64,000 nt of DNA from NCBI GenBank assembly GCA_010093605.1, contig MU004196.1:1386606-1450605 (forward strand). The letters are read 5' to 3'. The stretch is from Lophium mytilinum. Taxonomy: Eukaryota. Shown here in pieces: positions 192-31,409 of the stretch; positions within the stretch are counted from its first letter, which is position 1, and each line of letters opens with the position of its first letter. The notes beneath the pieces were generated by a model. That model was given only the letters and a program-made list of their open reading frames with translations. It ran no database searches and was not told the origin of the DNA. The translations under genes and the position numbers were made by a program.

Positions 192-238
192 TTTCTTCTT
201 CAAGCACCCGCACAAGGCGAGCCACTCAATGAAAAAAG
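192..238 (-). ncRNA. Conserved hairpin motif copy 1 (CUUGU loop), putative structured RNA element
   Basis: Minus strand CTTTTTTCA-TTGAGT-G-G-CTCGC-CTTGT-GCGGG-T-GCTTGA-A-GAAGAAA. Same spacing as copies at 26481, 31097 and 31364, with compensatory stem changes. Function is inference. Confidence 0.55.
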
Positions 239-585
239 TAAGTAGGGCTGTATCCGACCCGGCGGATTCAGCAGACCATCAAGAGGGTCTGCCACAACTC
301 CTAACCGGGTACCATACACCACAGAGCTTGTTGAAAGCCCTGGGCGGTACCACCTACAACGTGTATTAGCGAGTCGAATTGCCAAAGAGGGAGGAGAAGG
401 GACTTATCTTTTTTCATTAGTGTTCCACGCTTTGTCGTTGAGACCGGCAAGTCTCCCTAGAGGAGACGAGTAGTTAGCCATTCTGTTTCAAAGACGAGCA
501 CGACCACGACTGACGATGCTGAAAAAAAGATTGTAGGTTCGAGGACTGGACCTGCTTATGTAGGAGAAATTCCGCCAAGACTTCT

Positions 586-618
586 GGATGACTCATCAAC
601 GCTACGTAGTTTAATCGG
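586..618. promoter_or_regulatory. Conserved ~30-bp box (GGATGACTCATCAACGCTACGTAGTTTAATCGG) containing a Gcn4/CpcA-type ATGACTCAT site
   Basis: Closely similar boxes at 26763-26791 and 31683-31714, each upstream (minus sense) of a hairpin copy. Confidence 0.5.
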
Positions 619-865
619 CTCCGTTCTGGACGTTTTAGATGAGGGGACAGGGTGCCAGGAACCAGTGAAGTTGGCGGGGTACCACTGGGTGGTAACCAGG
701 TGCCTGTCACATGATCACTGAAGCTTCGGCCACCCAAGACGTGCACAGCATTACCGAGAAATTAGAGACCTGTCCCATTAAGCCAGCCACCTCGCTTTCA
801 GCATTACCAAGAAGATACAATCCTGTTCTCCCAAGCCAGTCATCTCGTCCTCAGCATCCGGCACC

Positions 866-1395
866 ATGATCATCATCAAGTACGGCTACGACGAGCGCAG
901 CCGGCGAAGAATTGGCCGTCGAATTGACGAGATCATGGCCACTGAGTCTGCCGAGCCGCGATTCCTGTACGTCTAGCTTCCTTTTCGTACCATACCAAGT
1001 GCAGTTTGCTAACAGAAACGAAGCAGAGAGGCGAGTTTGATGCGCAGCGAGCACACCAAAGAAGAAGTCGAGATCCGTCGCCAGTGGAGGGCGGCCAAGA
1101 CGTACGGTAGATCCTGCAAGCCATAGTCTTATCACTCAACTAACGCATTTCCAGTGCGGAGCAGTGCCAGAACCGACTAGACACCAACATCAAGGAAGAG
1201 GAGAGCGGCGAAGGCCTTGCTGCTGCCATTGCAATGAAAGATCTCGGCGAATGGATTACCCCGCCTCCTCCATCACCACCTGCACGCTCAGCCGCCGAGT
1301 TGCTTTTGGCTCCGAGAGATGAGAGGTACGGGGGCGGAGAATGGTGTGTCGACGAAGCGGTGGAAAATGAGAATCCCTGGGAGGTCGTAGAATAG
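866..1395 (+). CDS. Hypothetical protein, ~138 aa, 3 exons (not in the ORF track)
   Basis: Exons 866-966, 1027-1101, 1155-1395. Introns GTACGT..GCTAAC..CAG (60 bp) and GTACGG..ACTAAC..CAG (53 bp). Splices to an open frame MIIIKYGYDERSRRR...EVEIRRQWRAAKT...ENPWEVVE*. Confidence 0.55.
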
Positions 1396-2187
1396 AGCGT
1401 AGCGTTCTAGTGACAAGGCGTCGTACCATTCTGTAAGCAAGGGAATAAGTGTAGAGAAAGTAGGCTGGCGGAGACGATAGTGTGATTTGAAGCTTGGAAC
1501 TGCCCGCGGCATCTGGAGCCTTTAGAATGTATGATTCTCGCAATCTTTTTGTGTGCCGCCCAAGCCTATTCTTTGACTACTCGCGGCTGCATTTTGGTGG
1601 GCGACGGAGACTCTGCAGGTGCTGAATTGTGATGCCTGAGATATCTATTGTGACTCTTTGACTGACGTTGAACCCCTCATTGTGGTCGAAGAAATTTCAA
1701 CCCCAAGGAAAATGAATCAGTCCATGTTTATTTGCGGTCATTAGGCCACTACAGACGGTTGCATCGTATTCACAGAGAGATGGTTCTATTCACAGGATCT
1801 GAAGTGTTGAGACGACTCGTATCTGGAAAAGAGTGGAATTGTGGTATCATTTTTCCAACGCCCGGACCCCATCTCAATTGAAGCAAAGTCTGAACCAATA
1901 GTGACGCCTTCCTATACTTTTCGACATGCCCCCCGATGGTATCACCCTTCTCCAAAGAGGTCTATCTGCTGGTCCAGAATGAAGATCTAGCGCTGAAGCG
2001 TCTAAGCTATATACTAGCTAGCAGCCGCGAAACCGAGCCCAAGAATCTGGCTGAGAAAGCGGCCATCGGAGAGGCAGACAACGACAGGCTGGAAGAATTG
2101 GTCCAGGAGGGCCAGACGACTCCATCTACAGCGTCAGCACTTGAGTAGCACAATGGTGATCTGGAGGCGACTACTCATCCCTTACGC

Positions 2188-2784
2188 TCAATGCCTAAAC
2201 AAGCCACGGGTACGTCCAGTCGTGGAGGGCACCTCCGGTTCCGCGAGGTAGAACTCATAATGCATAGGCGTCAGTCCCGCACCTCCGAAGTCTACGACAA
2301 GCTCCGAAAGCGCTGGGAGGCACCACTCGCGGTACCGATCAACGACGGGCTGCTCCAGAGAATACGCCACCGCGTCCACGAAGCCTTGGGCAGCGCGCTG
2401 GGAAATGGGCGTTAGCTTAAGTCGAGGGCTGATGAGAGGGAAGATACGTACTTCTTGAACTACCTCGGGGCTTAGCTCAACTACCATCTCCAGCCGCTTG
2501 AGGTGGTGCAGCCGGCTGGCCTTGAAAGGCTCAAGGTAGGAGGGTGACAGGTGCTGCCAATTGTCCTCGCCAGGGCCAAGAGTGACTCGCAGCAGTAGAG
2601 TGGTTCTGTCCGCTAGAGCGCCGCTTGCGATGTAAGAACGGAGTTCGCCCAGGATGACTTGTTGGAGGGTCTTGATCCGTTTTTCGACTGACAGAAGCCA
2701 GGATTCTCGATTCATGGCCGTGGGCGGGGGCATTGAGACGGGCGAAGGAGAGGGAGTGACGTAAAGTTGGGCGGGCATCATCAT
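2188..2784 (-). CDS. Unknown-family paralogue A (~180 aa)
   Basis: Exons 2784-2452 and 2397-2188. Phase-0 intron 2451-2398 (GTACGT..GCTAAC..CAG, 54 bp, in-frame and stopless). Motifs YLEPFKASRLHHLKRLEMVV and CLPALSELVVDF resemble paralogues B-H. Start codon uncertain. Confidence 0.6.
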   Translation of the reverse strand: MMMPAQLYVTPSPSPVSMPPPTAMNRESWLLSVEKRIKTLQQVILGELRSYIASGALADRTTLLLRVTLGPGEDNWQHLSPSYLEPFKASRLHHLKRLEMVVELSPEVVQEVRIFPLISPRLKLTPISQRAAQGFVDAVAYSLEQPVVDRYREWCLPALSELVVDFGGAGLTPMHYEFYLAEPEVPSTTGRTRGLFRH

Positions 2785-3281
2785 GGTTTCGGTAGGTGGC
2801 TTCTTGAGTGGAGAATCTCGAGGTGGTGGTTGTGGTGTAGCTGGAGACTTTGGTGAGAGTTCGTCTTCCGGAGAAGACACGTTTTCTTATTCAAGTTCAT
2901 TGTGAAGTGGTCATCAATTCAGCTGTGACACAAAGAATTTTCCTGAGGTCGACATCGCATACATCTTCCACGCTTGTAGATTCACCGTCGCGAATTGAAT
3001 CCTGCAGAGCTTGGATCAGAGAAGGCCTACCTTCATGAGCCTATCATACGGTTAAGAGATCTCCAGTTCTGGTTCAGGGGGTTTTGCTTTTGACATTCTG
3101 ATGCCAAATTACTCAGTATGTTCGGGGTCGTCTCACGAGCATTAGTTGAAGCGCAAATTCATGTGTTGTAGAACCAGATATTTGACGTCATGGTTGGACA
3201 AAACTTGAGAGAGCCCCAAAGCAAAGAAAACCAGGAAGAAGCACCAGACGCTGTCCAAATCCGGCGAAGCCACCCATCATC

Positions 3282-3889
3282 TCACACTGTAGAAACTTGC
3301 AAACCTTCTCTCCGGGCAGTATACTCCTGGGCGGCGGGGCTGACAGGGAGTGAAGACACTAGTGAAACAATTAGTATATGGTAATACAATTAACGGGGGG
3401 TATTTCTTACGCTTCTGGCTACCTGGCAACTTTTCCCAGGAGCCATCGTCGAGACGCTCGTAGACGGCGCACGCGATGTCATTGCGATCGCCCACATACG
3501 CGACAAGCGTCACATTGAGGCGCCGTAAGTTGGTGCTTATCTGCTGGCAACGGGCGGCGATGTTGGCTGCTTGCGGAAGTAGATAGACAGCAGACTGGAC
3601 ATCAAAGGCCATAGTCAGTGGAGTGCGCTGCAAAGAGTAATGTGGTATGCCTTACCAGACGGTCACTCGGTCTGTATGATACACGGATGGCCACCTCATA
3701 GGTGCGCGTGCTGCCCAGTTCTGCAAGCAAAGCCAAGTAGTCGTCCGCAGTTTGAGGGTCATTGGCCATGAACCCCACGTCGATGGCATCGCATTCCTTG
3801 GCTTCAGGAGTGGCCAACAACACGGCTAGCTGCTGTTCAGACAGGGCTTGGCCGTCGGGGGTGGCAAGCAGACCTGGATAGTTCGACAT
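3282..3889 (-). CDS. Unknown-family paralogue B (~164 aa, 3 exons)
   Basis: Exons 3889-3656, 3594-3411, 3358-3282. Phase-0 intron GTAAGG..ACTGAC..CAG (61 bp) and phase-1 intron GTAAGA..ACTAAT..TAG (52 bp). Motifs LSEQQLAVLLATP, TNLRRLNVTL, YERLDDGSW. Confidence 0.75.
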
Positions 3890-4239
3890 TTCGTCTGCTG
3901 TGGGCGTGGTTGAAGAGTTGGTGGAGTTGGCTTTCGTGGGCGGAGGAGGCGAGCGAGAGTTGTTGAAGACTGGTGCAGGCAGCTTCGAAATGTGTCCACG
4001 GTAGCAGAATAACAGCAGAACGCCATTGACGTGACGCACAATGTTTCGATATGATCTGTTAGCCGCGAGTAGGCGTCTCGGGTCTTCGGAAGCCGTAACT
4101 CTTTTCGCTAGACAGTCAAACTCTCCACCGCTCTACACGAACCTCCTCTCCAGCCTCCACAGCCAATTTTCATCCCACACAACCAACCAACGTACACAAC
4201 TCCTTCAAACCCACATAACCACACTCCATCACTCTCACA

Positions 4240-4785
4240 ATGGCTACCGACCGCGAGACTTGGGCCGTCGTCGACCGCGTCGAAGCCGGAACGATCCTCG
4301 ACCGCCCCGACCTCGAGAGGTTCCTCGACAGCGTGTACGCGAAGACCATCCGCACCGTGAAAGTCGCGTTCGAGCCCCTCTTCGAGGACGATGGCACCAG
4401 CATCCTCGACATCTTTCGTCGACTGAAGAGCGTTTCTGCCCGGCGTGTGGAGGCCACAGTCCACATGTTCGAGGCCCAGGACAAGGTATGCAGTTCGAAT
4501 GTCTCGCCTGTCTACCGATGCTGACCTGTCTGTTCCTAGTTCCTGACCGTGTACCTTCCCTATAGCGCCGACTATGTCGAGGATGTCGCGAGAGAGATGG
4601 GCCCCAACCTGGCATCGTTGAGACTGACCCTGGTTAGAGAGGTCCCCGACGGGTATCGCTATGAGGCCTGGGCAGAGTATGAGCGCCGAGACGCGGGGTG
4701 GATGCAGATTAGGAATCTCGACGGCTCTCCATGGCATATGGTTGGCATGGGACCCGAGCGTGCTGCGGTAGATCTTTTGAGATAG
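4240..4785 (+). CDS. Unknown-family paralogue C (163 aa), divergent from B
   Basis: Exons 4240-4485 and 4540-4785. Phase-0 intron GTATGC..GCTGAC..TAG (54 bp). Motifs GPNLASLRLTL, YERRDAGW. Confidence 0.8.
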
Positions 4786-5748
4786 AGCGACTATGGCAAG
4801 GGTGGAGGGAAAGAAGCAGTGAAGATAGACAATGAGGCAGCACGATGTTCAGGGCGGGGTGCAGTGTGTGGAGTTGGCCCGAAGAGTGCGTGCAGCGATT
4901 GTTCCAAATACCAGATTCTCTTCTCCTTACACCACTTGAATGTGTCCTAACATGCAGCTGAAGTAGTGAACATGTATGCTCACGACCAGATGCTGTAGAT
5001 TCGCACTATTGTTGTTTTTTGTCTAATTTAGAGACACATACTCGGCGATCTGCTCACCACCCGCCTATTCTACTGTGCAAGCCGAAGGATTTGCTCGATT
5101 GTTACCGCTGTTGGAGTGCCTCCAATATGCCCAGAACCCTCCAGACAGACGCTACTGACGCCAGTCCCTGGATAAGGGGATGGGCTACTTGAATTGTGCC
5201 TTCAAAAGATTTTGCAATCATCTTACATGGCCCCTGGAATGCAGTCTTCTGCCAGATGTTTTTGCTCGCCATTAGACACCGTTAGAGTTACCCCAGCCCA
5301 TCGTCAAAATGACAAAAAATGCAGATATTCAGACATTTTGAATCAGAAGAGCTTACAGGCCCGAAGTTCTGGACTAAGATAGCCACTCGTGACCCTTCAG
5401 GACATTATCTAAATAAATGGAAGGGATGTCAAAGACCGGCGGCTGAATCTTGAGTGCTAACGCCAGCCTGGAGAAATCATGTTGGAAAACAGGGCTGTAG
5501 TCATTCGCTGGGTCAAGATTTCTATTAGAGAGGTCTTTACGCCTTCAATCTTTCTGTCTGCCTATTTCAAGTGGTCACGTTCGTGACTTCGAGAAGTGTT
5601 CATCTCGATATGTCCAGGGGTGTCACACGAGGATTTGGATACGCGCAGGAAGTCCATTTGAGTCTGATGATTTGTGAATCCCTTCTATGGCGACGATGTA
5701 TTGGAGCAAAAGAAGCAAACAATGGCTTGTGTTCCTGCAACCAACTCT

Positions 5749-6357
5749 CTAGGCGGAGCTTGTGGAGGGAAGCAATGGATCTTCCGTCGCCGTTAGTGAA
5801 GTACAGAGATGAATTGTAGAAACTACTCACGTTTGAGTGTCTTAGTATCCAGCTCCCAGGCGCCTTCCCCAATTCGCTCATAATCCGCGAAGGTGGTCTG
5901 GACAATGCCAATTTTGAAGCCCACGAGGGTTATGGTGAGTCGTCTCAGATTCGGACCTATTGTGGCGAGAAGCTGAGTCATTGGGCCCTTTGGTTCTCTG
6001 AAGGGGAGTAGGTCCAAAGTCATCTGTGTGCATCAGTCGCTGGTCTAGCATGTAGATAAGAGGTGGGTTGCGTACGATGTCCCTGTCGGCTGGGTATTCG
6101 ATTTGAATGACCAACTCCCAGATATACTTGCTATTCATGCTTTCGAAGAGACGCAAGTAGTCCCTGGCGCACGTAAGGTCGTCTATCAAAATTTTGACCT
6201 TGACGGTTTGTAAACCTTTTGCCAATGGAGTTGCCAGGTACACTGCGGCCTGCTGCTGGGTGAGAAGATTGCGATTGGATGCGGCTAGCAATACAGCTTC
6301 TACGGAGAGGGGGTCGCCTCTGGTTAAGGGAGCGGAGGGGTTCGCTGAGCTGGCCAT
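5749..6357 (-). CDS. Unknown-family paralogue D (~160-168 aa)
   Basis: Exons 6357-6076 and 6023-5831, probable exon 3 at 5780-5749. Phase-0 intron GTACGC..ACTGAT..CAG (52 bp). Probable phase-1 intron GTGAGT..ACTAAC..AAG (50 bp) at the same codon as in B. Motifs LTQQQAAVYLATP, GPNLRRLTITL, YERIGEGAW. Confidence 0.75.
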
Positions 6358-7129
6358 CGTGCTTTGAAAGTTTTGGTTTGGCTTGCAAGGGGTGAGACCT
6401 TGATGGGAGATGTGATGCTGGAAGACCAGGTTGTACCCTCTGGAAGAGAGCGAAGGCGAACATTTTGTACATACGTGCGTAACCTGATTGCTAGCAGCTT
6501 GCTAGCATCGTTGCTTGCTGTAAGTGATTGCTCTAGTCCAACGTAGTCACGGCCACGAGGTCTCATGACCGCGTAAAAGCAGCAAGTCCGCGATGATTAC
6601 CGTCAATAGGGGGGTTGCACGTAGATCCAGACTTCGAGAATCAAAGCGTAGGAACCAAACTATCGTCATAGCTACTTTGACTACGTTTTACCGCTGTTTG
6701 TGGGGTCTCAAGGCACTCTCACGAATCTGAGGTGGGGGGGCATCTGCCGGCTTGAATGCTAGGGTGTGGATCTCCAGAATACGGACACGAGCTCGGGGCC
6801 GCCGATTCGATTCAGCACCTTAAGCTCTTTACATCATAGATCCCCTGGATTTAGTAGGTTCGGAGGTGCTTAAAGGGTATAACAAGAACGCCAAAGCGCC
6901 TGCCTCAATATAGAACATGTTGCTCTTTACATTATAGGATGTTTATATGAATATGTGCGGGGGTATTTTAGAATGATGAACACCCCGCCAGATTTATGTA
7001 GAAATACAGTAAAGTTCCAAACTAAAGATATAACAACATAGACTATTACCGGACGGAGCGTTGCTCTCGAGCATTACAGCTAGGCCACAACAAAACATTG
7101 AGAAGAGGAGACTTTGTGCTATTCGGACA

Positions 7130-7350
7130 CTATAATTACAAGTACAAATACAAACAAAGTTACAAAAGCAACGCAAAAACGCCCCCAACGCCCACACAAA
7201 ACCCACAAAAGTACAAATACAGACGGAATTACAAAAGCAGAAAGGACTAACGCCCCAACGCCAGCAAAAAACCCCACAAAAGTACAAATACAAACAAAAA
7301 TACAAGAAAAGACAGAAGCTCCCCCAACACCCACGCAAACCCACAAAAAG
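7130..7350. repeat. A/C-rich tandem repeat, ~70-bp unit, ~3 copies
   Basis: AAGTACAAATAC recurs at about 7140, 7209 and 7279, with CCCCAACRCC..AAACCCACAAAA between. A related unit occurs at about 22668-22706. Confidence 0.75.
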
Positions 7351-7369
7351 ACCACACCACGCAGAGTCT

Positions 7370-7575
7370 GACGAGCAAGTCGTAACAATCCCGAGTCTAA
7401 AAGCAACAATGTTAGTATTTAAACCACCAAAACAAGCATCATTGGAGCATTTACGAGTAAATCAGCAGATCCAACCCCGTGCAGTCATGACGAGCAAGTC
7501 GTAACAACCCCAAGCCTAGAAGCAACAATGTTAATATATATAAAGCCAAAACATGTAACATTGGGGCATTTACCA
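7370..7575. repeat. Local direct duplication (~85 bp, two copies ~120 bp apart)
   Basis: GACGAGCAAGTCGTAACAA..AGCAACAATGTTA..CCAAAACA..CATTGG.GCATTTAC at about 7370 and 7488. Confidence 0.75.
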
Positions 7576-7699
7576 TTGAACCCATCGTTAGCCCTCGAGT
7601 CGGAGAATCGGATGACAAGAAAATCGGCAGATCCACTAGTGCTCACAATGTTAACATAATGCCGTCACAAATGATACAATTGCTTCATGATACGGTACC

Positions 7700-8197
7700 T
7701 CAGAGCTCCTCGTCTAAGACAGGGTAGCCGGCCTCCGGCAGGCCACCCACTGCGCACGCACGGCGGTGCATCAAGCCGCAGTGCGCGCACACCCACGCCC
7801 TCTCACCCCAGGGGTCGTCCCGGGATAAGAGCCCCATCAACTTCCATTTGGAACGAGATCGGGAGGGGAACCAGAGACGGCTCCGCCTAGCGTGGGGGTC
7901 GTCACCTCCCAGGACCTCCCCCAAGGCCTGGTGGTTGGTGACGGCCAAGGTGGCCTGCGCGGTCGGGGGGAGGTGGTCGCGGATCATCCTCCAAATCTCG
8001 GAGGGCATGCCTTCGAGGGTGGCGGCGGCGCGACCGGAAGGGGGGAGGTCGGCCTTGAGCTCGGCCATGGCGGCGCTGGCGTCGGCGGAGGCGGGAGTGG
8101 AGGAGAAGGAGCTGACGGCGGGAGCAGACGCGGAGGCAGAGGCGGCGGCAGACGCGGAGGCAGAGGCAGAGACGACGGCAGAGGGAGAGGCAGTCAT
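7700..8197 (-). CDS. Small F-box-like protein with a C-x2-C-x3-H motif (165 aa)
   Basis: LEGMPSEIWRMIRDHLPPTAQATLAVTNH fits the F-box pattern. LLSRDDPW...WVCAHCGLMH resembles the segment that follows the F-box in many fungal F-box proteins. Ala/Ser-rich N-terminus. Confidence 0.65.
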   Translation of the reverse strand: MTASPSAVVSASASASAAASASASAPAVSSFSSTPASADASAAMAELKADLPPSGRAAATLEGMPSEIWRMIRDHLPPTAQATLAVTNHQALGEVLGGDDPHARRSRLWFPSRSRSKWKLMGLLSRDDPWGERAWVCAHCGLMHRRACAVGGLPEAGYPVLDEEL

Positions 8198-8843
8198 TTT
8201 GAGTGAGTTTGGTGGTTTATTGGGTGATTAATCAGGGTCTGATGTGGCCGTTGTGCGCTGGTGTTGTCCTGATGGAGCAAGTGTCACAACATCGGTCTAA
8301 TCACTTCACGCGCACTGACCATACGTTAGACCCACACACATCTTGACCCACCAAATATTCGCTCGATAGTATCTAGATCCCGAATGACCAACATCATGTA
8401 CCACTTGCTGGACCCAGATCAGCTCTGTCCCTTTAAGCTGACCTCCAGAACGAGGCTATTTGCGAGGTCAATGACCCGGAGGATCATGCTTTAGGAAGCC
8501 ATATGTATGCGCCCGTTTGCCAACGTTTGAGGTGGATTAGCATGCTTTTAGCACCGTCAATATGGCAGGCATGTGTTCTTCTCACTAGTCTGAAGCACTT
8601 CAAACGGTGGCAGGATGGTGTCAACGAGTTCACGGCCAGGTAATGCATTCAGGAAGGGGGCAGATTGATAGCTAAAACTCGCTCCGTGTAAGCACAATCA
8701 TCTACTTGATAGCTCCATATTCGCCGGATAACTCGAATCAGTTGAGCAGTCACCTGGCTACCCAGAAGGCGCTTCCTTCCTCTAGGTTCAAGGACAAGAT
8801 CTGACTTAGAAGGCAGCAGAATGCAGTGACCGCGTTACCCCAG

Positions 8844-9486
8844 CTACTCAGGGTGAGAAAACTTCTCCGAAAGATTGTTCATGATGGCGAGTTTGGCACC
8901 GCGGGCCCGGGAGAGGTTGCGCTCGAGGAAAGACGTCGGGTTTCGTACGACAATCCACTTGTCCGAGAAAACACGGCGACGCATGGCGCGGGTTTTCGAG
9001 TCATGGTCGACGCCTTCGCCGCCGCTCATGTGAACAGTGATCTCATAGAGGCGCTTGCAACTTCTGCTCTTGATGAGTCGTTCGACGTCGTCCGGCGCGG
9101 GCAGAAGGGAGCGGAAGTGGATTCGATTGTGGCCTTGTTGGCGACGAATCTATCGCTTCTGTTAGTAGGTTGTTTCTCTGCAGGCAGGGCTGTGGACTCT
9201 AATGTACTTGCTGCTCGCCCTGCTGGTCGAGGACGTAGTGCAACTCTGCCTTACCGAGGCGGCAGCAGTGTCTGAGGGGCAGGAGGCGGGTGTAGGGGCG
9301 CGGATCGTGGTCGACGTAGACTTTGACGAACGCGGAAAGCTGCTCTCGATGGACGCCGGTGGCTCGCAAGTAACCGCTGAGGGTGCAGACTTGGACAGGC
9401 ACGTTGGTCTCAATGCAGCGTTCGATGAAGTCGAGGTTGTCCTCCGCATTGCTTGGTGGCGGGCCAGACGGGAAGGGGGCGGACAT
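8844..9486 (-). CDS. Unknown-family paralogue E (~194 aa)
   Basis: Exons 9486-9208 and 9149-8844. Phase-0 intron GTACAT..ACTAAC..TAG (58 bp). Exon 2 IRRQQGHNRIHFRSLLPAPDDVERLIKSRSCKRLYEITVHM...SDKWIVVRN aligns with paralogue F. Confidence 0.65.
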
Positions 9487-10035
9487 TGTAGAGGTATGGG
9501 CCAAGGGAAGTGACACTTGGAAGGGCAGCTAAAGAGCGGTTCGGAAACGCTTCCTGTGGGTGGGCGGCGAAGGGAGACGTCTGCGCGCAAAATCGAGAGG
9601 GCTTTCACGTGCCAAACTTGCACCAAAACGAAACTCCTAGAACATGGATTACACCACCGTAACTCTAGAGAGTACGAACTCCAAAGATTCTTCAACATCA
9701 TGCATCACCAACAAGCTGGGTTGGGTTGGAGTTCCATGTAGAATTTCAAGGTATGAGAAACCCCATAGCGCGCCCCTGCCAGCGCCATCACCTCAGCCAA
9801 AACCCCACAATAGCCAGCTGATTGAAAGCCCCATATATCTATATACCGTTTCCGATCCTAGATCTGCCGCAAAACCCGCCATCTTTGCCGAGATGTGAAA
9901 AGATCTTGAAGACAGCTCGCAGGGAGGAGGCCGGAGTCAGAACGTTGGCGAATCCCTAGAGATATAGCTATTACCCCTGGCTTTGATATCAAGCAATCCA
10001 CAACATACCTTCACCGTCAATCTGAGAAAGATCAG

Positions 10036-20960: not shown

Positions 20961-20995
20961 TTTTGATGGGATTCATGCAATCAAGTAGTATGCAA

Positions 20996-21292: not shown

Positions 21293-21389
21293 GCTTGCGG
21301 GTTGTTCGGGATGTGGTGGGCTTTGGGTTGGGATAATAAAATGGAAGGTGGAGGCGGTAGAGGCGAGCGCTTTGGAAGTTGCATGTCTA

Positions 21390-22500: not shown

Positions 22501-23043
22501 TCAACCACTCCGCAACCAGCTTCCTTCGATATCCTAATTCTCACTCATCAGTAGTCAAGCATCAAGTTCACGTCTCACATCAGCCTCTGATCAAACGCAG
22601 ACAGAAACAAGCTTCATTCCAGCCCCGCAGGGCGCACCGTCTACTCCGCACCCATCCCCGCAAAGACACCCCCAACGCCCGCACGAAACCCACAAAAACA
22701 CAAAACTGCATCACCGATTAGCACGCATCCTCCCTCTCACACCTTCTCCAAGAAAGACTTACAAAAACCCGCAAAACTCCACGCCTCGGCACGCCAGCCA
22801 CCAAGGAATCCAGAAAGTCGGGTCGCTCCGAGCGCCTTACAGACCCCCCTACCTACCCTACCTCCCACCACCCCCAGCCACTCTTGTAACCAGCGCCCGC
22901 ACCCGACAGCGTGCCCCCTTCGGGCACAAAGGCCACCCGGACTCGCACGCCGCGGGATTGAAGCGCTGGCCACGAAGAGCTGCGGCTAGGAGCAGTAGGA
23001 GGAGGGGAGGTTGGAGGGCCATGCGCGGTGTCCGGGGGCGCGG

Positions 23044-23936
23044 TCACCTTGCCCAGTAGATGGGCGCCGGGCTGTGTTGTGAGGTTAGTCAAAGGTGTTC
23101 CGATGAGGGGCTGGATTGGGGGGGACGTACATGACGGCCGGCAGGGCGGGCACCGGGGGGATTGGAGAGGAAGAGCTGCCTCAATGTCAATGGTTGTTCT
23201 GTGCTCGAAAGGGTTTGTGGAAGGGCGTACCGCGCCGGTGGTGGAGGTGAGCGAAGCCTCCTACGAGGCGCTCGCTCCGGCGCTGAGGGCGGAGAGGTCG
23301 GGGCCCGAGGGAGGGGAGGAGCCGGCCTAATTTGGTCAGTTGTTGCTCTTTTGTCTCAAATGGGGGGGGAGTTGACTTACGCCGGGCGCGTCGGCATTGG
23401 CGGCGCTGGAGGCGCAGGCCTGGATATGTCAGTCGTTGCTCTTCTTCTCGTATTAGTGGTGGAGTGCACTTACGCAGGCCGGGTCGGCATTGGCGGCACG
23501 GGCCGCGCAGGTCTGCGTTATGTCAGTTATTGCTCTTCATCTCTCCATTATGGGTGACTTACGCCGGGCGGGTCGGTGCAGGCGGGGCAGCCAGGACCAG
23601 CCTGAATATGTCAGTTACTGCTCTTCTTCTCTCGGTTGTGCTATAGTCTTACGCAACGCGGGAGGGAGCTAGCGGCTCGTTGGCCCTCATGGCCCGGAAG
23701 AGGTCCACCTCAACGGCGGTGTCCTCGAGGACGTCACCCCTCGAGGACCCGCGAGCCATATGCCCAGCGAGGGCGCGCAGCTCGGCCTCGGGCAGATCCT
23801 GTGAGTTTTGTTAACAGTTGTCCTTGAAGCGGCTGCAGACTGCTGGTTTGCTCGTCCCAATCGGGACGCAGTGACCGCAAAGAGAGGAAGATCTTACAGG
23901 ATAGATAGATCGGGACGGGGCGCGGCCGTCGGACAT
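23044..23936 (-). CDS. Proline-rich protein, 156 aa, 8 exons including three tandem 39-nt exons
   Basis: Exons 23936-23898, 23798-23653, 23601-23563, 23512-23474, 23419-23381, 23326-23231, 23175-23131, 23071-23044. All 7 introns have GTAAG/GTACG donors, branch-like YTRAC and YAG acceptors. Splices to MSDGRAPSRSIYPDLPEAELRALAG...LVLAAPPAPTRPAPARPVPPMPTRPAPAPPAPPMPTRPAPAPPLPRAP...PAPIYWAR*. Confidence 0.75.
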
Positions 23937-26480
23937 TGTGGCAGCAATTGTGTTTATTTGGGGGTTATGGAGGTTTTGTGGCTGTCGGACGGAGGAGGAA
24001 AGCTATCACGAGGCGGGCGGATATAGATGAAGGATATCTCTTGGCACTGTCACGCGCTAACTTGCCACACTAGGCCTATTTAGGCAGACGACGGGATAGT
24101 GAGGGTGCTACACCGTTCTTCGCGTGACCTGTTGCCTCAGGGGCCTGCAAATCAGCAGGTAGAATTAATGCTAGAGCAGTGGTGGGCGGAATTGGCTGTA
24201 CAGGATGAACGCACTGCGAGGTATTTATGCACGTTGGAGGATCTCAGGCCAACGCCAAAAGCTTCAAAAGCGAAGCTTTGCATGCATCTAGATTAAAGGC
24301 ATGTGAATTGACCCCAAGAACAGGTTCACTATTGTGCTGGATCACTGTTACAGCTTGCTAGGAAATTGAATTTACCCACACCACGATGAAGAACTGTCAT
24401 GAACGTTCGATTCCCTGAAGGTCTTCAGTCTTTTGTCGAAGATGACAGTCAAAGCTGGCCTACATATCGCTTCCTGCGCGACAGGCGATGTTACACTTCT
24501 CCTACCACTCTCCCTTGACGTCCCTGCCGGGTGCAGCGTCCTAGATCCCTGTGGTTTCCCCTCTCTTATGGCTGCTTTCCTCCCGAGCCTCGCACTTCCC
24601 TTCGGTGTCTTGTTCCTCGGCTGCGGTTCGCATTTCTTCCTGTCGCTCTAGCCCCGATTGTGTGGCCCCGTTCTCGAGAGTTTCTTCGACGGGTGGAGTG
24701 CTTGCGGAGTCGTTGTGGGCAAAGTCCTCGATGACCTGAGGCGTCGAAGGAAGTAACCGGAGTTGGAGAGCCGTAGCTAACGCGTCGGGCGCACTACACA
24801 TTCTTCTCCTGTTGAATTGCTGGCCGTAGCATCTGAAGTATAGCAGAACGCAACGTTGGGTGCATGAGTGATTCTGTGCGCTACGGGCAGTGATTGGAGG
24901 AGGTGATTGCTATGATCTGGTAGCCCTGTCTGAGCACATTAGCGAGGCATGATGGTGGTGAATCGTATGAAAGTACCGCGGTGCTGAGGATGATAATGGC
25001 TGAGTGTTGATGGTGGATCAGAAGAACACTCGTTGGTGGTGGAGCAGAGAAGCATTCGTTGATGATGCAGGAGACAAGAATCCTTCGATGATGGAGTAGG
25101 GAGTAGCCGTCGATGATGGACGGAAGAATCAGCCGTTGGTGAATATGAGTGTCGTGAGCGTGGTGATGAATGACATCCCGATTATAGCGTGGATGAGAAA
25201 AGAAGCCGTTGGTGGTGGCTGAGAGCATCATCGACTCCAGCGCGAATGAGCATCAACATGGCGTCGATGAAAGTATCTCCATTGAGGATGAGTAGGATGA
25301 GCAGCCCTGGAAAATGACAGGAAGATCTGCCGTGCACACCACGCAGAAATGGGCCTGAGGCTAGAGGAATGAGGAGAATCGCCATGTCCATGAGGGAATC
25401 CTGGCTGTCCATATCACACCGGAAATGCTTCCGAGATTTTCCAAGCCTGTCGAGCCTCCTATGGTTGTTCCCGCGAGCATTCAGTAGCCTCTGAGAGATT
25501 AGATTCCTGCTCGAAGGGTCAGCCCAATGTTCATGATGTTCCGGACGCCCATTTGCTACTCACCGCGCAACAAAAGTGTAGCCCTGTGAGCATCTCTCAC
25601 CCGGACTCGTCCCAACGGATCCTCTCCCGCTACGCTATCCCTGGGTACGGCGCTGTCGAGTTTGGAGTTTGCGTAGAAGTTCGGTGTGATCACCAAGCCC
25701 TTTAGACTCTTCCACTTCGTCAATCTTCTCGCGCACAATGCAGGGGCTGGTTGTGAAGGCCTTGGAGTCCCAAAGAACCGATCAGGATAGTCGTAGCTTC
25801 ACCGCTTCGTCCCGACAATGCTAGTCTCGAGTCGAACGCTCATCTTGCCAGCTTTTTCCAACTGGTTGAACGATTTGGTAGAAATCATATCGATTTTCCC
25901 CGGCGTCGGCCTCGAGCACAGTCTTCCAGTCTGCAGTTTTGGATCCACCGCGTCCTCTTCCCCTCAGATTCCGGCTTGTGTGGGTTTCGCAATGGCTGGA
26001 GAGCGTCAAGACATGCCTGTTTCCACCTCATTCGGGGCGAGCCATCTTTAGGCGCGTCTTGAGCTTCGCAGAAACTGGGGGACGCGGCGGCAGTGTGACG
26101 TCAGGCACTGCAGACTGAGCACAACACTACACGACTGCAGCGGCTCGCGAGGAGGGACGACGCTGATGACGCGACGAGCAGCAGCGGCGCTATTCTGACG
26201 AGGACGTGAGAAGAAACAAATGTAGGCAGGCTTGCCCTAGCCTCCATAGAAGCAGATGATGGAGAGTTAGGTTGACGGTAAGGTCCTGCAAGCTGGCTAC
26301 ATACCTCCGTGGGAGATGCCTCTCGCCGCTCTGAACAGTGGCCTGTTACCATCAGAGCGCCCTACATGCACGCGTACCGCAAGCTCATCGACGCCTATCC
26401 ATCATCATCAAGCTTGAACAACTCCTAAATCTACCCAGCTTCGAGCAGCAAACGGAGACTCAAGCAGATGCACCAAGCAG

Positions 26481-26528
26481 TTTCTTCTTCGACCACCCGG
26501 ACAAGCCGAGCCAATCAATGAAAAAAAG
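26481..26528 (-). ncRNA. Conserved hairpin motif copy 2
   Basis: Minus strand CTTTTTTTCA-TTGATT-G-G-CTCGG-CTTGT-CCGGG-T-GGTCGA-A-GAAGAAA. Confidence 0.55.
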
Positions 26529-26762
26529 TGTTGTCCTCCCGCCAGGTGGTGGTCAAGGCCGCCTGACAAGAGGGAGTTTCCAAAATTTCCCGTAAGACCC
26601 GAAGGCCTCACGAAGTTCCCCAAGGCCGAAGCCAAGGGGAGTGTGAGTAGTTCAAAATTTTAAGCAAATAAAATTAGCACCCCCTGCACTGGAGAAAAAA
26701 GAAGAGGGTTCAAGGAGAGAGCTCGCGGTCTTGTACTCGGCGGAAATCGCGCGGCGAGGTGC

Positions 26763-26791
26763 TGACTCATCAGCGCTAGACCGTTTAACCG
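26763..26791. promoter_or_regulatory. Conserved box copy 2 (TGACTCATCAGCGCTAGACCGTTTAACCG)
   Basis: Matches 586-618 and 31683-31714. Lies about 235 bp from hairpin copy 2. Confidence 0.5.
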
Positions 26792-28188
26792 AGCGATTTA
26801 CATAGGTGGAGCTTGGGTAGTAGGTCTGCTTAAATCGTGTAGAGATGCGGCCGGAGTGCCGCGGCTTGCGGGAGATTGACGCAAGTGACGTAGCTGGGCG
26901 TAGCTTCGTAAATTAGTGAGCCAGAGCACAGCAGCTCCGCAACTGGCATTGAGTTTTCGGCACCCCTTCAGTAGAGCGGTGGCTGCGACGTCTTTGGATT
27001 TTTCGGGCCAAGACTTCATATACTTTTTCAAGGGGCAATTACGCATTGAATGCATAAGATGAGGATTTTACCATCGACACAGATGCAGCTATAAGTGTCT
27101 GAGACGGCAGCAGATGAACATAGTACAAGGAGCTCCTAAGATTCCACAACTTGAAACGGCATTCAAAAGGCCCAAGAACAAGCATATCCGAACGATCTAA
27201 CCCATAAAGCCCACTCAAGCAGCAGCAACTTTGCGTCCTTGACCTCGAATGCCAGCCCCTTGCCACCAACTCCCTTGGTCTTCTCTTCTCCATCTCTGTG
27301 TAGCCCCAGCGCCTCAAGGTAACGCAGGCAGAGTATATTCCGGACTTTCAGTGATCTAATCCAATCGCAATGATCTGGTAGGAGCAACAGTCTACCGTGA
27401 CACGGTTCAACGGTGCCACCATCACGAGCGCGACGCCTGCGATCACCCTGCTATTTTAGACCGGCGTGTAGCGTTGTGGGTCCAGGCTTTGTAGTCGAGG
27501 GTTTTGCAAGAAGAAGTAGGGCTCGCTCTGAGCGTCTAGGTGGCGGACAGATCATCTTGATGCCTCTTGCGATAAATGACAGCCTGCGGAGATGTTTTGC
27601 GCTTCATAAACGCAAGACTACTACCCTCGTTCAGTACTTCTCCGCCAAGTGGCATCTGTCCTACCTAGTCATTGGCTGTATGAAGCCATGCAGGTTAGGA
27701 CCGGCTATCGGGTCAGTAGGAGGCGGGTGAGCCTCGATTCGGGCTCCGTTGGTCGCGAAATGACGCCTCTTCGCGTCGCGTTTCCTAGCGCTAGTGCGGT
27801 GTTTTTTGACTCAGGTCCTTCCAATTCCTCGTCCTTCTCATTGTGATGGGATCCAAGCCGTGCGAAAGGTCGTTTTTGTGCGCGCTATCGCTGCGAGAAG
27901 CGTCGCCGTGGACGTTGGGGCCGAGAGGAAACGTGTCGCCGGAAGATTTGTCCTTGCCGAGAAGTTTAGGTTGTTGAGAAGCTTGGGCGTGAGCGTCAAT
28001 TCCACGAATGTCGCGGAGAGTGCCATCTGCAAGAGCATCGTGGTCGTGTCGGAGAGCGCCTTCGCCGTTGTTGTATTCTTGAGAGTCATCCGTGCTTTCC
28101 TGCTAACTTCAACTTCGTGAGTAAGGTTGGACTGGGGCCTTCGTTAGGCGCCTCCTCTTGGGCTTTGAGGAAATTCTCGCATACTTAC

Positions 28189-28357
28189 CACATATGGCAC
28201 TCATCGAAGCTTCTGCCAGGATCCAGGCAAGTGTATTCCACCAACCAGAAAAGAAGCCAATAGTACGGCCATACCTCCTCCCCGGAGTCATTGATGCCCA
28301 GAGATATGGTCCGGCGGACGATGGCACTGAGTTCGTTGGCATGTCTGCAACAGAGAT
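28189..28357 (-). pseudogene. Isolated fragment of an APC-superfamily amino-acid permease (choline/GABA, Hnm1/Uga4-like)
   Basis: VPSSAGPYLWASMTPGRRYGRTIGFFSGWWNTLAWILAEASMSAICG matches the conserved P-S-x-G-x-Y-x-W..G-R-x-x-G-F-F-x-G-W-W-N-x-L-A-W segment and ends at a GTAAGT donor. The rest of a ~500-aa permease is not visible. Confidence 0.65.
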
Positions 28358-31096
28358 GAGACGGGCTGCAGCGGCTTTCTTGCGGTATAGGCCGAGGTGG
28401 TGCACCAGGACGGCGAAATGGAAACGTTTGTTGAGAATGCTACCGATTGCTTCTTGGGTTTTCCGGTTCGCAGTACGGCATATCCCCAGCGATGGAAGAG
28501 GCCGCAGTTCCGGAGGGTGCTATGCGTTGGCCCAGCTGTTTTTGTGTTTGGGATTTCCACTGGAATACAACAGCCAGGTTGACCTCAGCAACTTTCCCCC
28601 AGCGAGTAGGCAGGCGTGTAGGCCCAAGACGCCAGATTTAGATCACTACGTCGAACGTATCAGTTCCTTCCGTGTCATCATTCTCGGAGAGGGAGTCCTC
28701 CGTGCCAAATAGTTATTAGGATGGACTTTCTAGTGAAGATATGTACGCACCGGAGTTACCGTCAGTGCAAAGGTGTTGTTGGGGGACGTCGGGCTGGCGC
28801 TGCTGGCGGTGGTGGTGCCGAGCTCGGGTTTTGGCGGTACGGCGGCGGCGGCGGCTGCTGCTGTCGTGAGGATGGGGACGGGGTCCTGGGGAGGAGCAGC
28901 TGTCGCCGGCGATGGTGGTGGTGTAGCTAGAACTGGAGCTGGAGGATGTTGGAAGAGGACGGGGGCCGTCGAGACGGCCGCCGCTGAGGCCTTTGCCAAT
29001 TCGGCCTGCTTCGCCTCTTGCTTCGCCTTTGCCCTCGACCTACCTGGGCTGCTTGGTCGACAGTGCGCCAGGCACTCTAGGGATGACGAGGGTACTAACA
29101 AATGCGGTCGGTAACCAATCACGCGCTTCTAACTGAAACGAGTGGAGCACAGGTTTCCTTGGGACTTTCGCTCCTCCAAGTAGGGCTCTAAAAGCTCCCG
29201 GATTGAGCAAGACCGTTGTGGCGGCGCCCGTAATAGACTAATAAGCTACTGTGTCGGTGGGCTTTGCTGTTGCCGGTTGACGCAAGGGCCAACATCCTGG
29301 TGGTGTCTTTGAGGAGCGGACGTTGGTCCTTTTCCAACGCGTGACCCGTTCTGTGGCGACGAGGAAGCCGGCCGAATGCTTGAATAGGTACGAGGGCGCT
29401 GTCCTTCAATCAGACACAACGGGGCGGGCAATCTCTGCAGAGTAGACAGAGCTCAGAGTGATCATAACTCAACAGACCTCGCGCCCTTCTTTCCATACCA
29501 GCATGAGTAACCTGCAGCCCCCACAAACGCGCTGTCCACGTCAAGAAGGTCGCGGCTGACGACGCGGCGTTGGCGGATAGAGCGGCGGTCGTGGCAGGAT
29601 TCGCTGCCGGAGAGTTTTGAAGTACTCAGCCAAACCTAGACGGCTCCCAAGGAATCAGGCGTGTTTCCTACTTACGCTCATTGGACGATGATTGAGGTTA
29701 GTATGAGGGCGCGGCCGAAAGCAAAGTCCTTGAGGGAAATCTTGATGAAGGCTCCTGCGGAGGGCAAAGCTCTCCGGATATCCGTGTCGGGGGTCTCGGT
29801 CGCTCGAAGAGTGGCTTGTAATTTCCCCAAGTTGAAAGCATCGAGAAAGGGGGAAAGAGGGGATATGGGTGCTCTTCCGCTTGATGCTGTCGATCTCGGT
29901 CGACAGGACGGAATCTACGGCTGTCAGTGCTGCTGTTGGATACCGAGAGACGTAAAGGGGGCTGTAGATGTTTGCGTACTCCGACTCATCTGTAGGACGA
30001 TAGTTGGACACCAGGTATGAGATCAGCAAGCCTGCCACATTCCAAGAAGCTCCACATCACCCGAAGCCGTGGTCGGCCTGGCTCTCCCGCCGGGAAGGTA
30101 TCCCGACCAGACAAGCCTGTGAAAATCCGCACCATTTGCCCGTAGACATGATCAGCCTGGCTCTCTTGTGGGGAAGACGCAGGAGATGATCGTTCCCCCG
30201 ACACCCGCCTCTGGTGACAGGTTGTTGATTATAGGTGTTTCGTTGGAGCGACATCCGGTGGCTTTCGAGCGAGTTGTATCCTCTTCCTAATGCATCATCG
30301 TTTCCATCTTCCTTCACGGCTTCGCCGTGCAGAGTGACTCGTTTTCGCAGGCCGGAGAGTGGCGATGTAGGAGGAGGCCAAGTCGGAGGATAAGCAATGT
30401 CGCTGGGGTGGCTTTATCAGGTGATGGTGGGGCCTATTCGATTATTGACATGTCGGCGTGAGACTAGTATGAGCAGCGCCGGTCGCGAGGGCGTGTGTTT
30501 GATGAGATGAAGCAGTTCTGCTCCATCTGAGATGGTTTTCGAGTTTGAGGTGGCTAGAATTTCGAGATTCAAGCCCCCGAGTCTGTGGGGAGGCGACCGG
30601 CCTCACTTCACATAATCTGTGGCCAGGAGAGAGCGCAGGCAGGCATAGCCGCTGCGTACCCACAGCCGATCATATGAATCCTCTGCATGTATATATAGTG
30701 CATCTATGCAGCTGTTTGAGCGCCTTGTGAGGCCTCGCCGGTGGCGCTCCACGCTGGGCTTCCGGGGCTTCAAAATCCCTGGGTGGGCGACCTCGGCCAC
30801 CTTGGAGCTGCCGCGCTGCTTTCTAAACGCGTTTTTCCCAATGATAAAGAGGGACACCCAGATATGCAGGTAGATTCATCATGTTACGATTGCGCTGCTG
30901 AAGGAGAGACGCGGTCGCGTTGTGGTCGCAGAGACTTCGCAGTCGCCTTCGACCAGCTCAAAACACCACAACAAAAGGCATCAGATCGATGAGAACGCCG
31001 CTAAGAAGTATAAGACCATGCAAATAACGAGAAAGGTCTACATGTCCAGTTTCAATCAAACTCTTCTCGCCAAAGCTCAAGCACAACACCACCAGG

Positions 31097-31144
31097 TCTC
31101 TTCTTCAATCTCCCGCACAAGGCGAGACAATCAATGAAAAGAAG
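31097..31144 (-). ncRNA. Conserved hairpin motif copy 3
   Basis: Minus strand CTTCTTTTCA-TTGATT-G-T-CTCGC-CTTGT-GCGGG-A-GATTGA-A-GAAGAGA. Confidence 0.55.
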
Positions 31145-31363
31145 TGCTCAAAGACCGGACCAGCAGAAACTATGCCTGTTAGGCCCTGGTATGATAGCAG
31201 AGGTCCTCAAGCGTTGTGCAATACAACGGAACACGATACATGAGGTTGGCCACCCCAACAAGGTACCTAAGCAGGGCGTGTTGTGGACGCGTCACGTCAT
31301 AGGTACAACAACAAGGCGGGTCCAACCACCAAAGCGTAGGCAGAGATGCCAAAGGCAGAGAAG

Positions 31364-31409
31364 CTTCTTCTTCGAAGACCCAGACAAGCTGAGCAGTTCA
31401 ATGAAAAAG
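31364..31409 (-). ncRNA. Conserved hairpin motif copy 4
   Basis: Minus strand CTTTTTCA-TTGAAC-T-G-CTCAG-CTTGT-CTGGG-T-CTTCGA-A-GAAGAAG. Confidence 0.55.

Follow-up and report, generated by a model that had tools for sequence, protein, structure and literature searches.

This locus, a 64-kb stretch of DNA analysed at its full length (the window), raises the question of why one RNA hairpin should recur four times on its minus strand. An earlier note had described four minus-strand motifs with the same internal spacing; pattern matches and a gap-free alignment place them exactly there, with flanks far less alike than the hairpins themselves, and the stems it quoted, its G-U versus U-A pair and the C.C mismatch of copy 4 agree with the alignment. 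Each hairpin is approximately 46 nt long, with the same architecture throughout; from the base upwards, a U-rich stem of 7 bp is followed by an A.A mismatch, a middle stem of 5 bp, a single-nucleotide bulge, an upper stem of 5–7 bp and a CUUGU loop. The 19 modelled pairs, the mismatch and the bulge make approximately 21 nt per strand, with a loop of 5 nt, or 4 in one member. The IUPAC pattern derived from the four copies matches the window at the four minus-strand cores given below, versus no match in 100 dinucleotide shuffles. A covariance-model search, which the earlier note had proposed, finds exactly these four copies in the 64 kb at 66–71 bits, with the next match at 13.6 bits (E 0.86).

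189..241 (core 194-235), minus strand: hairpin copy 1, pattern match; −15.9 kcal/mol, covariance model 68.2 bits; closes unit 1
26478..26530 (core 26483-26524), minus strand: hairpin copy 2, pattern match; −16.5 kcal/mol, covariance model 66.2 bits; closes unit 2
31094..31146 (core 31099-31140), minus strand: hairpin copy 3, pattern match; −17.1 kcal/mol, 71 bits; approximately 225 nt behind copy 4
31361..31413 (core 31366-31407), minus strand: hairpin copy 4, pattern match; −14.9 kcal/mol, 66.5 bits; behind U4

The hairpin is an RNA structure of one strand, as had been claimed. The minus-strand folds of the four copies (−14.9 to −17.1 kcal/mol) have z-scores of −1.6 to −3.0, whereas the plus strand folds no better than shuffles (z +0.3, +0.8, −0.5 and +1.35). 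Across 15 distinct hairpin sequences, 93.3% of cells are paired, versus 49.5–59.3% when partners are slid by 1–3 columns; both sides change in 10 of the 19 pairs, and the covariation score is reached by none of 500 shuffles, which bears out selection on minus-strand RNA structure. The invariant parts are UUUUCAUUGA, CUUGU and UNGAAGAAG, plus two invariant U.G pairs, and the loop and stem base are invariant in all four window copies, where the search pattern did not force them. In line with the earlier note, which recognised no familiar RNA class in it, Rfam 15 has no family for the element: none of the four copies is covered by a match with E<=1.

Copy 4 follows a U4 snRNA gene of the same strand: 22 nt separate the Rfam-modelled end of U4 (31432) from the base at 31409, where pairing in the hairpin begins. 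The gene probably starts at approximately 31617 and is probably interrupted by an intron; joining the putative exon 1 to exon 2 aligns it to the 5′ end of the Rfam U4 consensus and removes the 3-nt gap of the unspliced alignment. Introns of mRNA type appear to be frequent in snRNA genes of these fungi, which would explain why standard models find these genes only in part. The U4 unit and the stretch behind it comprise the following features.

31686..31701, minus strand: U4-unit promoter motif TAGCGCTGATGAGTCA, with GATTAAAC before it and TATATAA after it at 31652-31658
about 31605-31617, minus strand: putative U4 exon 1, read from the sequence
31549..31604, minus strand: probable mRNA-type U4 intron (GTAAGT ... 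CACTAAC ... CAG)
31432..31558, minus strand: U4 snRNA, match to Rfam RF00015 at 80.1 bits versus a gathering score of 46 (E 3.5e-16)
31147..31360, minus strand: stretch between hairpins 4 and 3, fold no better than shuffles (z +0.31)

No promoter motif occurs between copies 4 and 3, leaving copy 3 without one of its own, and an Rfam search of the minus strand of 31147..31360 gives no match. This stretch may be either a second co-transcribed RNA or a mere spacer ahead of a back-up hairpin.

Copies 1 and 2 close two further units with the same layout: an upstream motif of the form GATTAAAC-N5/6-TAGCGYTGATGAGTCA, a TATA-like box, an RNA body and the hairpin, 0–22 nt past the modelled 3′ end. The 16-nt promoter motif has three perfect matches in the window, each on the minus strand ahead of a hairpin-closed unit, with a hairpin of that strand following after 200–400 nt; allowing up to 3 mismatches raises the count to 6, versus 0.86 expected. 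Promoter and hairpin are all that the flanks of the copies share. The motif lies upstream of the RNA body that precedes the hairpin, not of the hairpin itself, and copy 3 has no promoter; a stand-alone ncRNA gene family was rejected on these grounds.

26763..26778, minus strand: unit 2 promoter motif, from motif match and alignment
26531..26690, minus strand: unit 2 RNA body, three stem-loops and the Sm-site-like GGGAAAUUUUGG
589..604, minus strand: unit 1 promoter motif TAGCGTTGATGAGTCA, from motif match and alignment
242..520, minus strand: unit 1 RNA body, its putative start set by spacing to the TATA-like box; fold z −1.04

The unit 2 RNA folds well (z −3.30, matched by none of 200 shuffles) and has a strong 3′ stem-loop of its own ahead of the hairpin. 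Rfam gives only a faint U4 match to unit 2 (8.8 bits, E 8) and no credible match to unit 1.

Relatives of the hairpin were sought in metagenomes with a pattern in which 17 stem positions were free, the upper stem was unconstrained, and the basal stem and loop were fixed. The same fold is found in 15 of the 17 loci recovered, with widely different upper stems, and is absent from L003 and L013; over the hairpins in all 17, Rfam gives no match at E<=0.1. A U1 or U2 snRNA lies ahead of the hairpin, on its strand, at 12 of the 15 folding loci. The seven U2 matches (53–128 bits) all exceed the gathering score of 46, and the five U1 matches (46–54 bits, E 1e-8 to 9e-11) fall below theirs of 69.5. From the end of the snRNA match to the first paired base the distance is −3 to +10 nt at ten of these loci; at L001 and L006 the U2 match stops 58 nt ahead, apparently cut short by a 3′ intron. 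The remaining three folding loci comprise two cut off upstream (L008 and L010) and one, L009, with an Sm-site-like RNA without an Rfam name. Every hairpin copy with enough upstream sequence has an snRNA or other ncRNA gene ahead of it on the same strand.

That the metagenome copies have a conserved basal stem and loop is imposed by the search pattern, and the unbiased members are the four window copies and a divergent copy in L005/L015 (688-739). The latter, which the pattern did not force, lies approximately 46 nt behind a box-C/D-like RNA and keeps the stem architecture with a CGUG-type loop. The ‘invariant CUUGU loop’ of the earlier note thus holds for the window copies and fails for this member; CUUGU is present in 15 of 15 aligned copies, in 11 of them forced by the pattern. 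Approximately 23 hairpin positions do not vary between genes for different RNAs or, by search design, between distinct fungi.

We propose, with a probability of roughly 0.6, that the hairpin is a cis-acting 3′-end formation or termination element of Pol II snRNA-type genes in a fungus, probably a filamentous ascomycete. The proposal builds on its structure, covariation and strand, and on its location just after U4, U1 and U2 genes and after a box-C/D-like RNA. That context favours the ‘processing signal’ among the options of the earlier note and gives its small-RNA precursor no support; what it framed as dispersed copies of an RNA family are cis elements at the 3′ ends of snRNA-type units (U4 here, U1 and U2 in relatives). 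The note had named snRNA solely to exclude it. The hairpin would form in the nascent transcript, provided that transcription runs through it, and would be cut by a nuclear RNase III, presumably the Rnt1/Pac1 orthologue. The upstream product would be trimmed to the mature snRNA 3′ end, and the downstream product would give entry to a 5′–3′ exonuclease and so lead to Pol II termination.

Ends of Pol II snRNA and snoRNA transcripts are known to be formed through Rnt1 and NNS in budding yeast, Pac1 in fission yeast and Integrator in animals; literature searches found no description of this process in filamentous fungi and none of the hairpin element. In Saccharomyces cerevisiae, Rnt1p acts on stem-loops capped by AGNN tetraloops, which lie 3′ of U1, U2, U4 and U5 and also separate the snoRNAs of polycistronic transcripts; it cuts them 14/16 nt from the loop. 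Like them, the hairpin stands behind snRNAs, has a conserved loop on a stem long enough for 14/16 cuts, and may be used between two RNAs of one transcript (compare copies 4 and 3). Counted from the loop in the alignment, nucleotide 14 of the 5′ strand is the mismatched A and nucleotide 16 of the 3′ strand lies inside GAAGAAG, so that an enzyme measuring as Rnt1p does would cut one strand at the A.A mismatch and the other within the invariant GAAGAAG. Unlike in Rnt1p substrates, the loop is CUUGU (CGUG in one member) and not AGNN, which puts it outside the recognition rule of Rnt1p as it stands, and most of the conserved sequence lies where cleavage is predicted. In metazoans, the snRNA 3′ box is read by Integrator, which to our knowledge fungi lack, and is coupled to a special promoter, as the units here share a dedicated promoter motif. 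Giardia snRNAs and snoRNAs carry a conserved 12-nt 3′ processing motif (PMC3510501). The hairpin resembles the 3′ box and the Giardia motif as a gene-class-wide 3′ signal common to different snRNAs, but those are linear motifs that lack a conserved helix.

The closest likeness is to Schizosaccharomyces pombe. PMC8421224 describes hairpins with 23–32-nt stems and 3–5-nt loops directly downstream of U1, U2, U4 and U5, binding of Pac1 to these genes, Pol II read-through on Pac1 removal and a reported tolerance of wide variation in loop length and sequence. The present hairpin is likewise stable, small-looped and immediately after the mature Pol II snRNA unit (22 nt for U4, −3 to +10 nt at 10 of 12 U1/U2 loci), and both kinds of hairpin are also present at independently transcribed snoRNA genes. 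By likeness, its role would be expected to be co-transcriptional cleavage that triggers termination. Its stem is shorter than those predicted in S. pombe, approximately 19 bp plus mismatch and bulge; against a Pac1 helix of at least about 20 nt that may contain bulges and has a 3–5-nt loop (PMC8421224), its approximately 21 nt per strand, with a loop of 5 (or 4) nt, lie at the lower edge of the published stems. The approximately 23 invariant positions differ from the tolerance ascribed to Pac1 (PMC8421224). We read the hairpin as resembling the known Rnt1/Pac1 hairpins of yeasts, but with strongly conserved sequence. So much invariant sequence seems far beyond the needs of an RNase III substrate.

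The invariant parts and the two invariant U.G pairs point to an additional or different sequence-specific reader. It is conceivable, though we hold it distinctly less probable than the main proposal, that the hairpin is a dedicated sequence-and-structure signal, equivalent in fungi to the snRNA 3′ box of metazoans or to the histone stem-loop. Its CUUGU loop, U.G pairs and A.A mismatch would be recognised by a factor of its own or by an RNase III domain specialised for it, and the signal would be functionally coupled to the TAGCG...TGATGAGTCA/TATA promoter. If so, promoter and terminator would jointly mark off a distinct ‘snRNA-type’ cycle of Pol II transcription in filamentous fungi, serving also unnamed RNAs such as those of units 1 and 2 and L009. 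A strongly covarying, easily searched 46-nt element common to U1, U2, U4 and other ncRNA genes offers a handle for annotating Pol II ncRNA genes, unknown ones included, and 3′ ends in fungal genomes. It is also a defined substrate for asking what the RNase III of Pezizomycotina, or another factor, recognises, and a candidate compact terminator or processing module for guide or other small RNAs made from Pol II promoters in these fungi.

Several rival explanations bear on the same evidence. The 3′-end or termination signal might be read by a sequence-specific RNA-binding protein, instead of or upstream of RNase III, for example a Nab3-like protein on the CUUG of the loop, an option that we regard as rather improbable. 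Nab3 binds UCUUG/CUUG, and the NNS sites of snRNA and snoRNA genes in budding yeast are clustered short motifs in single-stranded RNA (Nab3 UCUUG, Nrd1 GUAA/G). In keeping with Nrd1–Nab3–Sen1 terminators, the hairpin lies downstream of its gene with CUUG in a loop that, like the stem base, is invariant in the four unforced copies; behind these copies CUUG recurs 15 times in roughly 790 nt, versus about 3.7 expected and one antisense CAAG, and the 80 nt downstream are G+U-rich (0.60–0.75), at about the 95th percentile or above in three of the four. The 4-fold CUUG enrichment is missing in the metagenome relatives, with 17 CUUG in 13 loci of 200 nt (2600 nt), near background, and GUAR occurs downstream of hairpins 0–4 times per 200 nt. 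Ahead of CUUG, 12 of 15 copies have a C where UCUUG has a U, the divergent copy has another loop on the same stem architecture, and a covarying helix of approximately 19 bp, which NNS sites lack, is needless for a single-strand-binding RRM protein. Retention of the hairpin in the stable RNA, as a shared 3′-terminal stem-loop or as a barrier halting 3′–5′ exonucleases at its base, is unlikely. Sm-class snRNAs normally end in a stem-loop; the window U4 forms no stable stem between Sm site and hairpin (−4.4 kcal/mol, z 0.03), and the metagenome U1 genes have merely 25–35 nt there. Yet full-length U2 models (positions 1-192) end before the hairpin, unit 2 already has its terminal stem-loop, and the hairpin follows the box-C/D-like RNA after its spacer and occurs twice behind U4, and we read it as lying outside the mature RNA. 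The metagenome U1 bodies measure about 150 nt, or about 197 nt if the hairpin is included, versus about 130 nt for Aspergillus fumigatus U1 on northern blots (PMC2377427), weak support given the different species.

More distant from 3′-end formation, an independent small RNA gene family, a microRNA-like precursor or a terminal repeat of a mobile element would suit several dispersed copies with conserved sequence and a Dicer-compatible length. This is very unlikely, given the ncRNA gene ahead of the copies, flanks common only in promoter and hairpin, and four copies in 64 kb in one orientation relative to their own gene, with no inverted partner copy or transposase context in the window. Least credible of all is conservation of a protein-coding segment or of palindromic DNA bound by a transcription factor. 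The hairpin sequence is imperfectly palindromic, and some 17-codon frames contain no stop in any of the four copies (frames 1 and 2 of the plus strand and frame 3 of the minus strand, over 53 nt), so the exclusion of coding in the earlier note fails by stops alone and stands by context and covariation. The sole ORF of at least 150 aa overlapping a hairpin copy, 31134-31619 on the plus strand, is antisense to the U4 gene, and none covers copies 1 or 2. Pairing with G.U pairs, two of them invariant, works on one strand only, the compensatory changes keep pairing rather than residues, and the hairpins lie downstream of genes, not upstream.

The hairpin is a strand-specific, covarying helix that lies immediately after the bodies of different Pol II-type small RNA genes. 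The four minus-strand motifs described in an earlier note (hereafter copies 1–4) are present: a pattern built from their shared positions matches at 194–235, 26483–26524, 31099–31140 and 31366–31407, and never in 100 shuffles. They were said to share identical internal spacing, and they do align without gaps, with 30 invariant columns between dissimilar flanks. As minus-strand RNA, all four copies share a single fold, with energies of −14.9 to −17.1 kcal/mol. The pairing is confined to that strand, as had been proposed, the plus strand of the copies folding no better than shuffled sequence. From its base upwards, the hairpin consists of:

basal stem, 7 bp, UUUUUUC paired with GAAGAAR
A.A mismatch, above the basal stem
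middle stem, 5 bp, UUGAN paired with NUYGA, an invariant U.G included
bulge, one base, between the middle and upper stems
upper stem, 5–7 bp
loop, CUUGU

The covariance-model check recommended in the earlier note returned exactly four matches in the window, at 66–71 bits, with the next best at 13.6 bits (E 0.86). An Rfam 15 search of the window names no family for the hairpin, in agreement with the claim that it falls outside described families. The argument from stop codons against a coding origin is only partly right, because three of the six frames are free of stops across the 53 nt in every copy; a coding reading is excluded on other grounds.

The sole Rfam gene in the window is a U4 snRNA (31432–31558, minus strand, 80.1 bits), and copy 4 begins 22 nt behind this match on the same strand. 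Upstream of U4 lies the minus-strand motif GATTAAAC-N5-TAGCGCTGATGAGTCA, followed by TATATAA. The 16-nt promoter core has three exact occurrences in the 64 kb, all on the minus strand and each 200–400 nt upstream of a hairpin:

31686–31701, minus strand, promoter core, exact match
26763–26778, minus strand, promoter core, exact match
589–604, minus strand, promoter core, exact match

Alignment of the three units shows that they have only the promoter region, a T-rich stretch at the start and the hairpin in common, and that their bodies differ. The U4 unit, unit 2 and unit 1, which end in copies 4, 2 and 1, respectively, are therefore three transcription units of a single class. The two units other than U4 correspond to the following RNAs:

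~26690–26531, minus strand, unit 2 RNA, ~160 nt, with an snRNA-type promoter and the 3′ hairpin
~520–242, minus strand, unit 1 RNA, body ~280 nt, with the same promoter and hairpin

The unit 2 RNA is strongly folded (z −3.3), has three stable stem-loops, ends in a stem-loop of its own and carries an Sm-site-like GGGAAAUUUUGG. Its 5′ end reads AGUGCAGGGGG-UGCUAAU...UUUGCU and is similar to the segments of U4 that pair with U6, but has no 5′ stem-loop. That unit 2 is a U4 paralogue is at most a loose idea, its global alignment to spliced U4 being non-significant (z 1.56 against 300 shuffles). In the 3′ part of unit 1, an ACA follows a pocket-like hairpin and precedes the first paired base of the 3′ hairpin by 11 nt, and an intron-like CTAAC...TAG signal lies near the 5′ end. 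The unit 1 RNA could be of H/ACA type; no H box was found on inspection of the body by eye, and a by-eye search of unit 1 and of the spacer between copies 4 and 3 gave no convincing H/ACA or C/D boxes. Rfam at E up to 10 names none of unit 1, unit 2 and the stretch between copies 4 and 3; the lax matches on these three bodies are at chance level, the best being that of the U4 3′ domain to unit 2 (8.8 bits, E 8). Copy 3, which has no promoter, follows copy 4 at a distance of ~225 nt. The intervening stretch folds at chance level (z +0.31); it is a second RNA made on the same transcript, or else a spacer that leads to a back-up hairpin. A 161-aa open reading frame (31134–31619, plus strand) runs antisense to the U4 gene and copy 4; a gene caller might annotate it, and it is almost certainly spurious.

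Metagenome contigs were scanned with the pattern TCATTGA-N9-CTTGT-N8-TNGAAGAAG, in which the stem base and loop are fixed and the upper helix is free. The scan yielded 17 loci. In 15 of them the sequence adopts this hairpin despite very dissimilar upper stems (for example CAGUUGC/GCGACUG, CUUUCAC/GUGAGAG, GGCGC/GCGCC and CUCCCAC/GUGGGAG); the non-folding L003 and L013 look like chance matches. Rfam finds U2 in seven loci and U1 in five, always on the strand of the hairpin, the U1 loci scoring below the Rfam gathering score (E 1e-8 to 9e-11). For ten of these 12 loci, the end of the snRNA model falls in the interval from 10 nt short of the hairpin's first paired base to 3 nt past it. The exceptions are L001 and L006, where a 3′ intron apparently cuts the U2 match short, 58 nt upstream of that base. 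That leaves three folding loci: two are truncated on their upstream side, and L009 contains a ~170-nt RNA (1000–1200, minus strand) with an Sm-site-like AAAUUUUUGA and the 3′ hairpin. Rfam at E ≤ 0.1 does not match this RNA, which may be a U5 or U4 that has diverged or is split by an intron.

Across the 15 distinct hairpins, 93.3% of cells pair, compared with 49.5–59.3% when the partners are slid. Ten of the 19 pairs change on both sides, and the covariation score is reached by none of 500 shuffles. Seven pairs never vary and therefore give no evidence of covariation either way, their constancy in the 11 metagenome rows being imposed by the search pattern. The model also matched a copy that the pattern had not forced (L005 and L015, 688–739, minus strand, 43.8 bits), which keeps the whole architecture, with A.G for A.A and a CGUG-type loop. 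The CUUGU loop, described as invariant in the earlier note, is so in the four window copies but is not universal, and the loop is thus not strictly invariant. This divergent copy lies ~46 nt behind an RNA with a box C (UGAUGA), a box D (CUGA) and a terminal stem:

740–960, minus strand, L005 and L015, box-C/D-like RNA, CUGCUGAUGAUUCAGC ... CUCUGAGCAGAG

Given the position of this RNA ahead of the hairpin, snoRNA-like genes too are served by the element. In both contigs the box-C/D-like RNA is transcribed divergently from the promoter of a U2 gene, which makes that promoter bidirectional, with an snRNA on one side, a snoRNA on the other and a hairpin closing each. In its longer form, the shared promoter reads GATTAAAC-N5/6-TAGCGYTGATGAGTCA, with an AP-1/Gcn4-like TGAGTCA inside, in the window (589–625, 26763–26800 and 31686–31720, minus strand); a TATA-like box follows ~30 nt downstream, and a T-rich tract separates it from the start. 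Among the metagenome loci (L001, L002, L007 and L012), several snRNA genes have a TAGCG(C/T/G)G element 10–45 nt upstream of the TATA box, which may be the fungal counterpart of a proximal sequence element.

In fungal Pol II snRNA genes, hairpins at this position are entry sites for nuclear RNase III. The Saccharomyces cerevisiae enzyme Rnt1p, which measures 14/16 nt from the loop, cleaves stems with an AGNN cap that lie downstream of snRNAs or separate the snoRNAs of polycistronic transcripts. In Schizosaccharomyces pombe, according to passages of one study, hairpins with 23–32-nt stems and 3–5-nt loops lie directly behind U1, U2, U4 and U5, the RNase III Pac1 is present on these snRNA genes and its removal causes read-through (PMC8421224). 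Because the hairpins of both yeasts occupy the same position, we read the element, by analogy, as this fungal group's equivalent of the RNase III snRNA 3′ signal. Cleavage within the hairpin stem would leave two products: the upstream one would be shortened to the mature end, and 5′–3′ degradation of the downstream one would dislodge Pol II. Copy 3 would serve as a fail-safe for copy 4 or would free another RNA. An enzyme that followed the 14/16-nt rule would be predicted to cut at the A.A mismatch and inside GAAGAAG, the invariant parts.

The sequence conservation of the hairpin exceeds the reported needs of Pac1-type recognition, and a sequence-specific reader of the Nab3 kind may recognise it. 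CUUG is present in the loop, and the ~790 nt downstream of the four hairpins in the window contain it 15 times where ~3.7 are expected, but it is not enriched behind the metagenome relatives, and the divergent copy at L005 and L015 is without the loop motif. The 200 nt downstream of copies 1 and 2 (window 1–190 and 26380–26478, minus strand) are G+U-rich, with 6 and 5 CUUG where ~1 is expected; these tracts may provide, in this genome only, a further termination signal of a single-stranded kind. Downstream G+U richness was rejected as a defining feature, being modest in the window (0.60–0.75) and variable in the relatives (0.34–0.70, mean 0.57). Retention of the hairpin on the stable RNA is disfavoured, because complete U2 models stop before it, unit 2 has a terminal stem of its own and the hairpin also follows the C/D-like RNA after a spacer.

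One sequencing run under the same species label, its kind guessed, gave 12 short matches to the window in contigs otherwise unlike it. Contigs from other loci match copies 3 and 4 over 44 nt with 2 differences, and there are also matches at the promoter motif; one 213-nt contig, likewise from another locus and a library of guessed kind, ends 1 nt past its hairpin match. These contigs therefore permit no inference on transcription or RNA ends.

The position and probable role of the element are familiar from Pac1 and Rnt1 hairpins. It differs from Rnt1p substrates in the absence of their defining AGNN feature, and its stem is at the lower edge of published lengths for Pac1 hairpins. What is new is a defined, searchable sequence–structure consensus common to several gene types. 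The literature passages searched contain no description of the hairpin. In text passages, two systematic screens for fungal structured RNAs, which report mostly single-copy structures, list nothing like it (PMC8216456, PMC5640933), and small-RNA surveys of Neurospora and Aspergillus fumigatus, covered to the same extent, do not mention it (PMC2780460, PMC2377427).

A 56-nt mRNA-type intron (31549–31604, minus strand; GTAAGT...CACTAAC...CAG) apparently interrupts the U4 gene ~13 nt from its start; once the exons are joined, the U6-pairing region matches the U4 5′ consensus without gaps. One to three such introns are also seen in the U1 and U2 genes of the metagenome loci (L001, L002, L007, L011 and L016), for example between ATACTT and ACCTT at the U1 5′ end and in the loop of U2 stem-loop IV. 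From these gene sequences, it seems common for snRNA genes of these fungi to contain introns, which probably account for the low Rfam scores. The host is probably a filamentous ascomycete, with G+C near 52%; its placement among the fungi rests on the intron signals in the window (GTAAGT/CTAAC/YAG) and on Pfam DUF3433, a domain typical of filamentous ascomycetes, in the largest open reading frame.
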